NCBI GenBank assembly: GCA_048938385.1
Contig: JBHLMG010000022.1
Span: forward strand, 1-37,493
Direction: 5' to 3'
DNA length: 37,493 bases
Origin: Promethearchaeota archaeon
Lineage (GTDB): Archaea > Asgardarchaeota > Hermodarchaeia > Hermodarchaeales > Hermodarchaeaceae
The translations under genes were made by a program, and so were the position numbers. Shown in pieces: positions 5,693 to 10,850 of this stretch. Position 1 is the stretch's first letter, and every line of letters starts with the position of its first letter. Below the pieces are notes generated by a model. The model had not been told where the DNA came from. It ran no database searches and was given only the letters and a program-made list of their open reading frames with translations.

Positions 5693-8611
5693 TTGGTTGA
5701 ATACGGACAACGACGGATTATTCGAATCGGCGGTCGACGACAACGATTTCTCATTGGATCTATCATTTTAATTGTCATCATACTTGTCGTCGTTGCCGGT
5801 ATATTTGGTATCCAAAACATGTTCCTTGATTGGAAAATGCTGGATGCAATGTATTTGAATAAAGCTGGTGTCTCATGGTGGGCCACCTATTCTCTGAATG
5901 GATTGCTATTCTTTGTTGGCGTTCCTGCCGCTCTCATTATCACACTAGCTGGAATGCCCCACGAATCCAAGGTTCTTAACCTAATTTGGATGAATGAACG
6001 AATTAGTAGTCGACGCTATCCTAAATGGTATATCGTTGTTGGATACAAATTCCTCCTCTTCATTCTCTCCTATGTTTTATTCACATTCGTTTTCATCGAG
6101 AACGCTCGCTATCTAGCCCTTCTCTTTCAATCTTCTGCATCTGGAGTTGGAAACTGGGGACAAATTGGAGATGCTCTAACCTTAATCTTCAATCCAATGG
6201 TTTCTGTGGATGTCGTCGCGAACTTGGTTGCCACCATCGAGGTTCAGTATTCAATCTTCCTGATCTATATGTCATTGATGTTACTTGTTATTGGAATACG
6301 AGTTGTTTTGGATTTAGTTCATTATTTTGCCCGAATTGGCCCATCTACCCGACGCCCTGAAGTCCGAGTGATTGCATCCATTTCGTTCCTAGCAGTACTC
6401 GTTCTTCTCTGGTTCCTCCTAACCGTACCCTATATGCGTGTAGATGTAGGTACTCAATTCTATGTGTTCCAACTACTCATACTCTTCATCTTTTCATCTG
6501 CTGTGTGTGTAATCACCTTTGGCTTGACTATAATTGGTCGCTTTGGTCGAGCTGGTGAAGTTCCACGAGTCAATAGGCGAGTTTTAGCAGGATTAGGAAT
6601 AATAACGGCTATTCTCATCATACTCCCCGCTGTATTCACAGGCTATCTTGTGGCTGGTCCAATTCAAGGGCAGATGTGGGAGCCTTGGCATTGGGATCCT
6701 CTCGTGACTAAGGAGATTGAATTTACTAATTGGGCGGGTGGTCCCAACATCAGTGAGATCCCCTACCAATCACTGGTGAATAATACGGGGGTCTCTGATG
6801 GACAAGTGCTTGGACATGCACGACTCTGGGATTTAACAGCTAGTCGTAATAAAATGCGAAGCCAGACAATAGCTAATTGGATGGCCCTTGCGGATAGTGA
6901 TGTTGTCTATCTCGGTGGGCGTGAATACTGGATTGCTCCATATTCTCTCGCACCACCAACCCGTGAAGATTTCCATAATCGCTACCTACTATACACTCAT
7001 GCAGAAGGCGCCACAGTCTTGGATGCTAGCAGCGCCACAGGGGAATTCCTCACTCCCTCCCAGGTTCAAAGCATTTTCAGCGTTGAAGCCAACTTCCCGA
7101 TCTACTATGGCGAATCACCACCTGAATACTTCAATGATGGCTTTGAAGGCTTCGTTCTAGTTGATACAAACATTGCACCAGAAACGGGGACTCATTCCTT
7201 CGAGGGTGAACCAGACTACATACTATCAGGAGCAGAACTCGCTCTGAAGAAATTGATATGGAGTATCGAAGATCTAAGCTTTGCATGGCTATCCTTTAAT
7301 GAACCAGTAGCCAAAGTGTTAATGTTACGTAATGCCGAAGAACGGGTCCAATCTATCCTTTTACCCTTCATGTACACTGACTGGGATCCCTATCTTGTCT
7401 TTGATCGTGCCAATCGAGAAGCCTACTACTGTGTACCTGTCTACAGCGCCTATCCCCTCCAACTCCAATACGCACAATCACCATACCTTCGACTGTTAGG
7501 GTTTGCTTTAGTGCATTGTGAGAACGGTGACATTACTTGGGTACGAAATCCAAACGCTAATCCAGCTGAATTCTTCATCGAATCGTTATACGAGAACTGG
7601 TATCCCTGGATAGATTCACCAGCATGGCTTATAGATCAGCTGCGATATCCTGAAGACCTTATCAATGCTCAACTTGCTGTGGACTTCTATTACCATGTTA
7701 CCCAACCATGGGTATGGCGTGCAAACGCTGATTTCTTCGAAAAGCCTGACAGCCAACCAAGTGTCCACTATGTCTTATATCCATACAATGGCAGCCTTCA
7801 TTGGGTCGGCTACCAAGCTGCCCGTTATGTCCGACATGAAGCCATGAAAATGGCAGGTTTCTACCTCTTCAAAAACGGACCTGAAGTCGGCACTGGAGTT
7901 TTTGCCCGTGCGGGAACGATTGATCCTGATACTGCAACACCTATCAGCCCAGTCTTCGGTGTCGATGCAGCAGTTGAAAGCTTCGAACAACAAGCACGAT
8001 CCGACCTGGTTCTTATTCAACCGTATCGAATTGGCAATAGACTACTCATGCCCCTCAGTGGTCGATTAGTGTACCTATTTCCAGTGTATGCAGAACAACC
8101 AGGCGACTCCTTAGTGGAAACGCTAACGTATGTGGGCATGGTGGATGCGGAAGACATCAACCAAGTTGCCTATGCTCCCACGGTCGCTGAAGCCTATGCT
8201 AAGTTCTTCTTTGGCTACAACCAAACGGTTACTGGAGTTGACTTCATCGAAACGAGTTTGAATCCCTTTGACATCGATGTAGGGGACTTTGCAGAAATTA
8301 GCTACTTAGTTAAGAATGGTAACACAACAAGCAGCGATGTCTCTATTCAACTTGCTATGCATACATCGAACTTTGATGTCTACTTCCACAGTTCTAATGT
8401 TACACCAATAATTCAGGGTGGCTTGAATGTATACAATATAAGCCAACTGCTCATGTATCCTCAAGATGTGAGCGGTGGCACTATTACTGTTCATGCCAAA
8501 GCCTTGGATGCAGGGATGCTCTTAGCGACTTACATTATCGAACTTCGGATCCTTGTTAACAATGTACACACTCAAACAGAGTACTTCTACCTGACAGTTC
8601 GTTCAACCTGA
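5693..8611 (+). CDS. UPF0182 family integral membrane protein with a C-terminal beta-rich extension
   Basis: About 7 N-terminal TM helices, then RLWD, LYTHAEG, IYYGE, DPYLV and LRYPEDL motifs typical of UPF0182; TTG start with AGGTGA SD. Confidence 0.88.
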   Translation: MVEYGQRRIIRIGGRRQRFLIGSIILIVIILVVVAGIFGIQNMFLDWKMLDAMYLNKAGVSWWATYSLNGLLFFVGVPAALIITLAGMPHESKVLNLIWMNERISSRRYPKWYIVVGYKFLLFILSYVLFTFVFIENARYLALLFQSSASGVGNWGQIGDALTLIFNPMVSVDVVANLVATIEVQYSIFLIYMSLMLLVIGIRVVLDLVHYFARIGPSTRRPEVRVIASISFLAVLVLLWFLLTVPYMRVDVGTQFYVFQLLILFIFSSAVCVITFGLTIIGRFGRAGEVPRVNRRVLAGLGIITAILIILPAVFTGYLVAGPIQGQMWEPWHWDPLVTKEIEFTNWAGGPNISEIPYQSLVNNTGVSDGQVLGHARLWDLTASRNKMRSQTIANWMALADSDVVYLGGREYWIAPYSLAPPTREDFHNRYLLYTHAEGATVLDASSATGEFLTPSQVQSIFSVEANFPIYYGESPPEYFNDGFEGFVLVDTNIAPETGTHSFEGEPDYILSGAELALKKLIWSIEDLSFAWLSFNEPVAKVLMLRNAEERVQSILLPFMYTDWDPYLVFDRANREAYYCVPVYSAYPLQLQYAQSPYLRLLGFALVHCENGDITWVRNPNANPAEFFIESLYENWYPWIDSPAWLIDQLRYPEDLINAQLAVDFYYHVTQPWVWRANADFFEKPDSQPSVHYVLYPYNGSLHWVGYQAARYVRHEAMKMAGFYLFKNGPEVGTGVFARAGTIDPDTATPISPVFGVDAAVESFEQQARSDLVLIQPYRIGNRLLMPLSGRLVYLFPVYAEQPGDSLVETLTYVGMVDAEDINQVAYAPTVAEAYAKFFFGYNQTVTGVDFIETSLNPFDIDVGDFAEISYLVKNGNTTSSDVSIQLAMHTSNFDVYFHSSNVTPIIQGGLNVYNISQLLMYPQDVSGGTITVHAKALDAGMLLATYIIELRILVNNVHTQTEYFYLTVRST

Positions 8612-8729: not shown

Positions 8730-9572
8730 ATGACATCACCTTCTTGGGATGATGCCTGTCTCACATCTGAGGTGTTAGCGGAGCGAGGGCAGCCCGAACC
8801 GAGATTATTGAGGGGCTTTTCAGCTTACCTCGTTGCTAAAAACAAGCGAATCAGTACCATTTTGAAAGAAGATCCCAACTTGATTCAGCTTAAACGAGGG
8901 CTATTTGCTCGAAATCGTTCTAATAACGGAAAAGCATGGATGTCCTATGTTAACACTTCGGGCATTTTACTACTTATTCCGCGACGAGACATTACAAAAC
9001 TTAGTGTAACCGCACAAGATGAATTAGGAGGAATGCGAAGACGCTTCGTCCTCATAATTCATAATTCATTACAAACGGAGCTACTTCGCAAGCAGTTCTC
9101 TCGCATCCTCGAGCGGACACCCGTCATTCGCGTTCGACCAGGACTGCTTCTGGCTCCTCAAATTCCAACTTCACGATATCGAAAGTATGAAGGTGTCCTT
9201 CAACGTCCTAGTAAACTCCTCACTAAGCTCGCTAGTTTAGGGTCACCCGTATGGTATGTTCCTCGTGTTGAGATTATACACCCGAAAGCCCATGAAGTAA
9301 TCGAAGGGTTCATGAGAACCACAATTGAACATCGAGCTCGCCGAATCGTTCAAATGTGTAAAAAACTATACATTGACCTGAAACAACCTCCTGAAGGGCT
9401 TACTCATCCTACTGTTGTCCAGAAGCGATTGAACAGGATTAAACGCCATCTTCGTTATCTTCGATGGCAATCTAGGTTTTTCAAGGAAGAACTCGGTATG
9501 GATCTTCAAATGCTTGTTAATCGTGCCCTTTCTGCAGCAAGTCGCGTCCAAAAACAAGTGAAAAAAATGTGA
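8730..9572 (+). CDS. Basic protein with a PaaX/ChrB-N-like (Cas2-type ferredoxin fold) central domain; possible regulator
   Basis: RFVLIIH...LRKQFSRILE..PVIRVRPGLLLAP followed by a helical hairpin ending ..RL.RIKR.L......FF, resembling ChrB-N/PaaX patterns; strongly Arg/Lys-rich. Confidence 0.55.
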   Translation: MTSPSWDDACLTSEVLAERGQPEPRLLRGFSAYLVAKNKRISTILKEDPNLIQLKRGLFARNRSNNGKAWMSYVNTSGILLLIPRRDITKLSVTAQDELGGMRRRFVLIIHNSLQTELLRKQFSRILERTPVIRVRPGLLLAPQIPTSRYRKYEGVLQRPSKLLTKLASLGSPVWYVPRVEIIHPKAHEVIEGFMRTTIEHRARRIVQMCKKLYIDLKQPPEGLTHPTVVQKRLNRIKRHLRYLRWQSRFFKEELGMDLQMLVNRALSAASRVQKQVKKM

Positions 9573-9780
9573 CGGTTCACAAAGCCGATTCTTTCTCCTC
9601 TTTCTTGATATTTACCCAGATTATAACTTCATTTATCAAAAATGACAATACTTATCCTATTTTTAGGAAACAGGGGAATTATGAAATTCAAAAGGTCAAT
9701 TTAACCTTCATTATCACCTTTTTCATTATGAAATATATTGAATTAGAAGATATACTCTGGCAAAATTTAGGGTGATTTCC

Positions 9781-9852
9781 ATGGCTAAAAAGAAGTCAGG
9801 AAAGAAGAGTAAGAAGAGTAAGACAGCCACTGAAAAGAAAGGTAAGAAATAA
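9781..9852 (+). CDS. Lys-rich micro-protein MAKKKSGKKSKKSKTATEKKGKK (23 aa)
   Basis: Hand-translated; GGGTGA SD just upstream; AT-rich promoter-like region before it; 12 of 23 residues are Lys. Confidence 0.7.
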   Translation: MAKKKSGKKSKKSKTATEKKGKK

Positions 9853-9993
9853 CGCTTGCTAATCTTTTCAATGACTACTCATTCCCTATATCTTTACCCG
9901 GACTCAGGATGGTCACAAACCCTCTTGGGAACGGGTATTGATTGATTTTGGAACTGTCACAAAGTTCCTTCCACTCAAAGGAGTTGAAACAAC

Positions 9994-10074
9994 ATGATCG
10001 ACTACAGGTATCAACCTGAAGACGATGACGAAGAATGGGAAGAAGATTGGGAAGAAGACGAGGAGGATTGGTAA
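9994..10074 (+). CDS. Acidic Trp-rich micro-protein MIDYRYQPEDDDEEWEEDWEEDEEDW (26 aa)
   Basis: Hand-translated; AAAGGAG SD upstream; in-frame TGA at 9985-9987 fixes the start; T-tract downstream; 16 of 26 residues are Asp/Glu. Confidence 0.75.
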   Translation: MIDYRYQPEDDDEEWEEDWEEDEEDW

Positions 10075-10114
10075 AAACCTTCTCGTCTCCCCTGTTTTTT
10101 TTACCAATTGATTT

Positions 10115-10609
10115 TTATCCAAACCATTCAGTTGCTAAGAATAACCCTCCTGGAGCCTTTTGACCTCGAGGATATTCGAGGGGTTGGTTTAGCTGGTTTT
10201 CAAGAACTAGGAGAAGCTGGTTAAGGGTTCGTTCGTTTAACCAGACAGTAACTGCCTTGTTTCGCAATTTAAAAATTCGTTTATCCTCAGCATTAGTGCG
10301 CATGCGGATGATAAGCCAGATCTGCCATTCGATCTCGACTTTGTACTCCTCAGCATATCGAACTACATCTAAATCATCCGGTGGATTGCACAAGAACTTC
10401 CGTGTGCTCTGACCACGCGTGTCATATTCTTCAGGCATGGTTTTCAAGGCATCTCGCATAGCCAACAGGGCTTTATCGGAACCCATGAAGAAGATTTCAG
10501 GACGCCATTCTTCTTGCTGGGAATGACGGATTCGCCAAACATAGAACGCTAAATCGGTAAACACCTGGGATTCTTGAGTTGACAAAAGGAGTCTTCTCCA
10601 CTTGTGCAT
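10115..10609 (-). CDS. Hypothetical alpha/beta protein (about 155-164 aa)
   Basis: ORF track; globular composition; converges on the acidic micro-ORF. Confidence 0.75.
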   Translation of the reverse strand: MHKWRRLLLSTQESQVFTDLAFYVWRIRHSQQEEWRPEIFFMGSDKALLAMRDALKTMPEEYDTRGQSTRKFLCNPPDDLDVVRYAEEYKVEIEWQIWLIIRMRTNAEDKRIFKLRNKAVTVWLNERTLNQLLLVLENQLNQPLEYPRGQKAPGGLFLATEWFG

Positions 10610-10781: not shown

Positions 10782-10850
10782 ATGCGAAAAAAATGGAAGA
10801 AGAAACGAGCCCGAAAAATTAGAAGAAAGCGTCGTAAGAAGCAGAAGTAA
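10782..10850 (+). CDS. rpl41e: Ribosomal protein eL41 (L41e, also called eS32), MRKKWKKKRARKIRRKRRKKQK
   Basis: Hand-translated 22 aa; aligns without gaps to eukaryotic eL41 [25 protein letters not shown] (MR-x-KW-x-KKR-x-R...RKRRK); T-tract follows the stop. Confidence 0.9.
   Translation: MRKKWKKKRARKIRRKRRKKQK

Follow-up and report, generated by a model that had tools for sequence, protein, structure and literature searches.

Two micro-genes lie side by side, downstream of a gene for a very basic protein of 280 residues, on a contig of 37,493 nucleotides (nt) from a Promethearchaeota archaeon (Asgardarchaeota; Hermodarchaeia; Hermodarchaeales; Hermodarchaeaceae; GenBank assembly GCA_048938385.1, contig JBHLMG010000022.1, contig C26 in our numbering). 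We refer to this whole stretch as the window. One micro-gene encodes a lysine-rich peptide and the other an acidic peptide that ends in tryptophan. Together with the basic protein they are a real, conserved and undescribed module, whose function we infer only. The constant neighbor of the acidic gene, in five Asgard families and in Bathyarchaeia, is the upstream gene for the 280-residue basic protein. With a probability of roughly 0.45, we read the three genes as a docking module in which the acidic peptide would bind the basic protein and the lysine-rich peptide would be an accessory. The features concerned are as follows.

8730 to 9572, + strand: gene for a very basic protein of 280 residues, predicted to hold a Cas2-like ferredoxin unit and a three-helix bundle
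9770 to 9776, + strand: Shine-Dalgarno-like motif of the lysine micro-gene, GGGTGAT
9781 to 9852, + strand: lysine-rich micro-protein gene, 23 codons (12 Lys, 1 Glu; net +11)
9979 to 9983, + strand: Shine-Dalgarno-like motif of the acidic micro-gene, AGGAG
9994 to 10074, + strand: acidic, tryptophan-ended micro-protein gene, 26 codons (16 Asp/Glu, 1 Arg, 3 Trp; net -15)

Re-reading of the sequence bore out the coordinates, compositions and Shine-Dalgarno motifs that the preliminary description had given for these two co-oriented open reading frames (ORFs), the 141 nt between them, and its observation that the peptides are of similar length and opposite charge (+11 and -15).

To place the basic protein, homologues were sought in 400 sampled genomes of the phylum and were found in 80: in 16 of 18 genomes of the window's own family (f1), in 59 of 89 of the Thorarchaeota-type family f6, and also in families f15, f12 and f31. 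None was found in the large families f9 (0/135), f4 (0/31) and f19 (0/22). A hidden Markov model (HMM) of the acidic peptide detected a single copy per genome and, across the phylum, reached the genus only. As the HMM was too composition-biased to reach further, we used a DNA pattern (five Asp/Glu codons, Trp, stop) for the census, a pattern that many true acidic ORFs escape. It gave about 100 hits in the 400 genomes as compared to 5 for a reversed control. The hits were concentrated in f1, f6 and f15, which are families with the 280-residue homologue, and there were none in f9, f4 and f19; scattered hits elsewhere were mostly the C-termini of larger proteins. Outside the genus, 29 of 91 hits lay within 1 kb of a homologue, in 28 of the 63 homologue-bearing genomes. 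Related genomes are not independent in these counts; the link spans genera, families and orientations. At 12 of 13 distant loci an acidic micro-ORF, usually Trp-bearing and often divergent, stood within about 1 kb of the homologue. The arrangement is usually divergent in f6, tandem in f15, and divergent in f31 with the lysine ORF behind. Among 12 further representatives of the protein family, all from metagenome assemblies, five had an adjoining acidic ORF and one had a lysine-rich ORF at the contig edge.

Two observations were made alongside this census. At six Thorarchaeota-type loci (L060, L067, L090, L092, L094 and L096) the acidic micro-ORF is flanked by genes for an MTAP-like PNP_UDP_1 phosphorylase and a CN_hydrolase, and this placement holds also in genomes where no 280-residue homologue was detected. 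The ties of these two enzyme families to polyamine metabolism may or may not be meaningful for poly-ionic peptides. Some larger Asgard proteins also end in five acidic residues and Trp (L086:1501-2271, - strand; L069:82-591, + strand; L091:1501-2376, - strand), and one such protein, of 256 residues, has an N-terminal basic stretch followed by Cys-x-x-Cys. The acidic Trp end may thus be a reusable tail.

The 280-residue protein has a net charge of +31 and an isoelectric point of 11.0, its relatives range from +24 to +37, and its charge density falls in the top 0.5% of the long ORFs of its genome. The family is small, with 68 clusters when 1.8 billion proteins are grouped at 50% identity. Every one of the 68 representatives is strongly basic (net +12 to +41), and none carries a fused acidic tail. 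In public annotation all the named members that were looked up bear only the label "hypothetical"; the organisms named by NCBI are "Candidatus Odinarchaeota archaeon" and "Promethearchaeota archaeon" for the closest relatives and Thorarchaeota, Borrarchaeum and Bathyarchaeia for more distant ones.

Sequence profiles of Pfam and NCBIfam gave no match for the 280-residue protein, and PF20229 and PF20803 gave no hit at E up to 1 in 15 family members, while precomputed matches labeled "PaaX_M (faint)" occur on three distant homologues. The predicted model (predicted local distance difference test score, pLDDT, 83; predicted template modeling score, pTM, 0.80) has an N-terminal part rich in beta structure, along with a beta-alpha-beta unit of the ferredoxin type and a bundle of three helices. 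Closest by shape were unnamed Thorarchaeota and Bathyarchaeota clusters (template modeling (TM) score 0.63-0.75), followed by clusters with ChrB_N/PaaX_M (TM 0.43-0.49, over residues 101-280). PaaX was the best match in the PDB by Foldseek, a weak one (E 6.9e-3), and a wide VIA-align search with the protein returned mostly generic three-helix bundles.

Both micro-ORFs very probably encode peptides, as judged from their sequences in relatives. A DNA search of 40 relatives recovered both frames, with roughly 80% of nucleotides identical and always downstream of a homologue of the 280-residue protein, whose own protein identity is 34-55%. Of the 15 genus genomes, 14 have an intact acidic frame and the fifteenth has a contig break there; in two relatives the start codon is TTG. 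The lysine frame is complete in 12 of the 15; a contig end cuts it short in one, and two retain no more than a short, decayed remnant. Wherever the micro-ORFs of relatives differ in length, they do so by whole codons. Mean pairwise diversity at codon positions 1, 2 and 3 is 0.18, 0.19 and 0.45 for the acidic frame and 0.17, 0.27 and 0.49 for the lysine frame, and pN/pS is 0.33 and 0.28, respectively (uncorrected, with pS already at 0.6-0.7). A Shine-Dalgarno motif precedes the lysine ORF in all 13 relatives that have it (GGTGAT, CTGTGAT or TCGTGAT, 5-11 nt before the ATG) and the acidic ORF in 14 of 14 (AGGAG or AGGTGA, 7-12 nt before the start codon). Frame conservation and synonymous bias in related genomes, the check that the preliminary description had proposed, were therefore found for both ORFs, which are conserved side by side in the relatives.

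Particular residues are kept as well. The lysine peptide retains an N-terminal MAKKK and a C-terminal KKxKK. The acidic peptide retains an aromatic residue near position 4-6, a P-E-D motif, an internal Trp or Tyr, and a terminal EEDW followed by the stop; the EEDW-stop ending occurs in 11 of 13 genus acidic sequences.

The compositions are also rare within the genome. In a six-frame scan of the 2.48-Mb genome (90% complete), limited to ATG-started frames of 15-70 codons, only one frame had at least 50% Asp/Glu, and this was the acidic micro-ORF. Three frames had at least 40% Lys: the lysine micro-ORF, an eL41-like frame at 10782-10850 of the window, and one frame on contig C17. Since such compositions are unique or rare in the genome, the micro-ORF pair is not a chance product of composition. 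The Lys-rich frame on contig C17 (G000 C17:24211-24282, - strand, locus L099) also has 23 codons, is preceded by a GGTGA ribosome-binding site, and sits between a JAB/MPN-like gene and an MTAP-like phosphorylase gene; it had a DNA match in one relative only (G005).

Beyond Asgard archaea, the module takes a form that suggests what the acidic peptide might be. In Bathyarchaeia the gene order is a 61-residue protein, a 36-codon Lys/Arg-rich ORF, and the homologue of the basic protein. This block lies between S24e/S27ae and aIF5B, and on a second contig beside S6e (L102/L103). In the 61-residue protein a CxxC...CxxC ribbon precedes a run of Glu that ends in Trp. The ribbon protein of a second lineage has 63 residues and an acidic end with a terminal Phe; a basic ORF and the homologue follow it. 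Both ribbon proteins matched LysW best (PF21344, E 3.6e-5 and 1.1e-3; NCBIfam LysW/ArgW, 9.3e-7 and 2.7e-4), in each case under the curated cut-off, and a ribbon protein matched the LysW chain of PDB 5k2m_E at E 3.9e-4. The solved LysW of Thermococcus ends in EEDWGE, and the acidic peptide of the window ends in EEDW. In another lineage (L113/L114) the homologue is followed by a 29-residue acidic Trp peptide and then by ABCE1, and in yet another (L120) a 39-residue peptide with a basic N-half and an acidic, Trp-bearing C-half lies just upstream of the homologue. Position and composition suggest that the Asgard micro-proteins may correspond to the tail alone of an acidic adaptor of the LysW kind. 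LysW itself binds basic partner enzymes through its acidic surface and tail.

The core of the proposed three-gene module would be the acidic Trp-ended peptide and the adjacent arginine-rich, Cas2-like protein of 280 residues, with the lysine gene added to it. The acidic, aromatic-studded tail would dock on the basic surface of the 280-residue protein and would mask or escort the face with which that protein presumably binds nucleic acid. The lysine peptide, a lineage-specific accessory in this reading, would compete for the acidic peptide or buffer it. We favor docking because of the extreme negative charge of the acidic peptide, its fixed aromatic residues, its fixed and exceptionally basic ferredoxin-fold partner, and the precedents of LysW and eIF3j. 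For a complex prediction the pair was taken from genus g2 (a homologue of 279 residues and an acidic peptide of 32), because the window's peptide is shorter than 30 residues; the score was 0.00, which speaks neither for nor against docking.

Several points weigh against docking. Conserved adjacency, especially when divergent, fits a regulator and its target genes equally well. Homology between the Asgard peptide and LysW-like tails is not provable because the sequences are of low complexity. The likeness of the predicted 280-residue protein to ChrB_N/PaaX_M is structural only, at TM below 0.5. At 6 of the 12 metagenome representatives no acidic or lysine ORF was found, although four of these six are on contigs shorter than 2.8 kb. 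Finally, the public sequencing runs that hold the stretch are sediment DNA runs, with no RNA run among them.

One alternative is that the lysine and acidic peptides are each other's main partners, as the preliminary description had proposed: a disordered polyelectrolyte pair in which the acidic member chaperones or neutralizes the basic one, which would act on DNA, ribosomes or condensates. Similar lengths and opposite charges are what such a pair would show, and part of the proposal stood. Four separate lineages (f1, f15, f31 and Bathyarchaeia) have the two micro-ORFs next to each other, in differing gene orders, and in two cases, f15 and L120, one peptide unites a basic and an acidic stretch. 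The lysine ORF, however, is dispensable. It is decayed in two genomes (G001 and G008) and missing in a third (G017), with the acidic ORF kept in all three, and none of the nine acidic-bearing f6 loci that were read has a lysine ORF beside the acidic one. The invariant neighbor is instead the 280-residue protein. Nor are fixed aromatic positions and a C-terminal EEDW required by pure charge pairing. We therefore consider it rather unlikely that the two peptides are each other's main partners. The remnants of the lysine ORF, at L009:2480-2545 (G008) and L015:2480-2545 (G001), consist of the last codons and the stop only, have neither start nor ribosome-binding site, and are followed by an intact hairpin and acidic ORF. 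Single peptides with a Lys/Arg-rich N-terminal part and an acidic C-terminal part that bears Trp, natural fusions of both types of charge, are encoded at L065:537-644 (- strand), L066:527-640 (- strand) and L120:1545-1664 (+ strand).

Another possibility is that the 280-residue protein is a PaaX-like regulator of the micro-gene unit and that the peptides act elsewhere, with translation as the most plausible place, where they could, for example, mimic acidic tails with a hydrophobic tip such as the C-terminus of the ribosomal stalk that recruits aIF5B, aEF2 and ABCE1. The divergent arrangement in f6 is as expected for a regulator and its target, and the weak Foldseek match to PaaX points the same way. 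On the other hand, no winged-helix DNA-binding domain was recognized in the secondary structure of the model, whose N-terminal part was not searched alone. Genes of the translation apparatus recur beside the module: eL41 in the window, uL2 in L057, S24e, S27ae, S6e and aIF5B in L102/L103, and ABCE1 in L113/L114. The archaeal stalk tail, which is acidic with a hydrophobic tip, binds ABCE1 (PMC6125642). However, this sample of neighbors is not systematic, many loci have unrelated neighbors, and the adjacency of eL41 is not kept even within the genus. A separate regulator with peptides acting elsewhere thus appears unlikely to us. A broader proposal is that in Asgard archaea and Bathyarchaeia a free acidic peptide resembling the LysW tail, and cut down to that tail in Asgard lineages, would switch an arginine-rich, Cas2-fold RNA- or DNA-binding protein on or off, with a poly-lysine peptide as the counter-ligand; in view of the recurring neighbors aIF5B, ABCE1 and ribosomal proteins, this undescribed regulatory module would act on the translation apparatus. 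We regard this as decidedly unlikely.

Two further explanations deny the peptides a role, and both turn on the anatomy of the micro-gene unit, which holds the following elements in addition to the ORFs and their Shine-Dalgarno motifs.

9734 to 9747, + strand: candidate archaeal TATA/BRE (B recognition element) promoter, a T-rich motif about 35-47 nt before the lysine ORF
9890 to 9942, + strand: conserved spacer hairpin between the micro-genes, proposed from folding and covariation
10078 to 10102, + strand: CCTTCTC box and T8 run, the probable transcript end, conserved after the acidic ORF

In most genus genomes a variant of TTTGAWTTRGAA precedes the start codon by the same distance, and this T-rich motif is a candidate promoter of the micro-gene unit. 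All genus genomes have a spacer of 140-145 nt between the two ORFs, and that of the sister genus measures 107 nt. Throughout the genus the acidic ORF is followed by CCTTCTC and then by a T-rich run (T4 to T8), an arrangement not present in genus g2, and the box and run are probably a terminator. A T-run after the lysine ORF is absent in most genus genomes. With a T-run after the acidic ORF and none after the lysine ORF in most genomes, the two ORFs would lie on one bicistronic transcript.

A hairpin of 55-60 nt was found at the same place in the spacer in 11 of 12 genomes checked, with a sequence that differs between subclades. Support comes from a trimmed spacer alignment (A7) and a structure of 16 pairs. 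In this alignment 76% of the cells pair as compared to 33-43% when partners are slid, the covariation score is 0.326 as compared to 0.08-0.17 in controls with one of 500 shuffles reaching it, and eight pairs have changed on both sides. With the untrimmed spacer alignment RNAalifold gave no consensus structure; a covariance model made from a single subclade missed the other subclades and scored the window's hairpin at only E 5.4; and Rfam and tRNA scans of the window gave no match. A conserved RNA hairpin at 9890-9942 thus has moderate support, and it could possibly serve as a processing, stability or protein-binding site.

Poly-Lys and acidic nascent chains perturb ribosomes. It could be speculated that the two frames are cis-acting leader or sensor ORFs, in which runs of Lys or Asp/Glu codons stall or destabilize ribosomes and regulate a neighboring gene while the peptides themselves are functionless, and the conserved hairpin between the ORFs would suit such an arrangement. 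There is, however, no gene in the same direction downstream, where a T-run is followed by a convergent gene. Moreover, specific residues are kept beyond codon classes (the aromatics, the terminal Trp and MAKKK), and in Bathyarchaeia the acidic member is a folded zinc-ribbon protein. These points make a leader or sensor role highly improbable. We give practically no credence to chance ORFs in a conserved, non-coding, purine-rich element: GA-rich DNA is indeed open in several frames, antisense included, but the openness of the antisense and shifted frames follows only from GA-rich codons, and no start is conserved in them. The two micro-ORFs vary most at third positions, have indels of whole codons only, and keep their starts, Shine-Dalgarno motifs and stops in the genus and beyond.

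The module is flanked in the window by three other genes.

5693 to 8611, + strand: gene for a UPF0182-family membrane protein of 972 residues, directly upstream of the module throughout the genus
10115 to 10609, - strand: convergent gene, 164 residues, no Pfam match, a conserved neighbor
10782 to 10850, + strand: eL41-like frame, 22 codons (Pfam Ribosomal_L41, PF05162)

The 164-residue gene takes the same convergent position in eight relatives of the genus, at 45-54% identity by tblastn, and it may or may not belong to the module. The eL41-like frame is the sole such frame in the genome and matches PF05162 at E 0.029 with 14.8 bits, under the 22.3-bit cut-off. The preliminary description had named eL41 as another possible client of the peptides. 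This suggestion lost its footing: the frame adjoins the module in this genome only and is in no relative's locus.

Genes as short as these fall below the limits of gene callers. Of nine micro-proteins looked up, eight, all of 39 residues or fewer, are absent from a collection of 15 billion predicted proteins, and the 55-residue acidic form of f15 is annotated only as "hypothetical protein". Full-text literature searches turned up no account of DSS1-like proteins in Asgard archaea, of micro-protein pairs of this kind, or of the family of the 280-residue partner. The module is under selection in several Asgard lineages and in Bathyarchaeia, which points to a basic cell function that annotation has missed, and its Asgard hosts are the closest archaeal relatives of eukaryotes.

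Comparison with known systems gives partial likenesses. A search of the acidic peptide and two longer relatives against Pfam with hmmscan found no family at E up to 10, although composition filters may hide weak matches, and the micro-peptides matched no PDB sequence. A toxin-antitoxin module was considered and rejected; such modules are mobile, patchy and often multi-copy, whereas this one is single-copy per genome and keeps a conserved syntenic position throughout the genus. The pair of prothymosin-alpha and histone H1 is alike in that two disordered chains carry extreme opposite charges. These are large eukaryotic proteins that are genetically unlinked, however, and in our module the lysine partner is dispensable in several relatives while a third, folded basic protein is the constant partner.

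DSS1/Sem1 is a small, disordered, Asp/Glu-rich protein with a conserved Trp that binds basic grooves and can mimic nucleic acid; its partners include the proteasome lid, BRCA2 and TREX-2. The peptide of the window is less than half as long as DSS1 and has no match to its profile (PF05160) at E up to 10. The acidic motif of eIF3j has a conserved Trp that is held in a pocket of the RNA recognition motif (RRM) of eIF3b (PMC2824034). The eIF3j/Hcr1-eIF3b pair thus resembles our module in combining an acidic Trp stretch with a ferredoxin-type (RRM) partner, the partner here having a Cas2-like ferredoxin-type unit, and ABCE1, a co-worker of eIF3j, neighbors the module in one lineage. On the other hand, eIF3j is a far larger, multi-domain eukaryotic protein, and the 26-residue peptide has no family match. 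The predicted shape of the 280-residue protein resembles, at TM 0.43-0.49, clusters with ChrB_N/PaaX_M, the Cas2-like central domain of ChrB and PaaX, but no N-terminal winged helix as in PaaX was recognized in it, it is without the C-terminal domain of ChrB, and its family is far more basic.

A further comparison is with the LysW/ArgW amino-group carrier proteins of Thermus, Sulfolobus and Thermococcus (PDB 5k2m, 3vpb and 3wwl). A role as carrier for an ATP-grasp ligase was considered for the acidic peptide and rejected, as the genome's two RimK-type ATP-grasp genes are on other contigs in unrelated contexts (G000 C33:50344-50904 and C51:63704-64252; L118 and L119); no small zinc-ribbon or acidic ORF is listed beside them. 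The window holds no LysX/ArgX ATP-grasp or LysZ/Y/J/K genes, and the genome gave no LysW match that passes the cut-off. The window's acidic peptide differs from these carriers in having no Cys, no globular domain and hence no zinc ribbon (two CxxC pairs; PF21344/NF041070), in ending at EEDW-stop without the final Gly-Glu of EDWGE, of which the final Glu carries the substrate in LysW, and in having a partner gene that encodes a Cas2-fold basic protein. It resembles them in being small and very acidic with a C-terminal tail that contains E-D-W, and the module may show how a folded acidic carrier of the LysW type can be cut down to nothing but an interaction tail.

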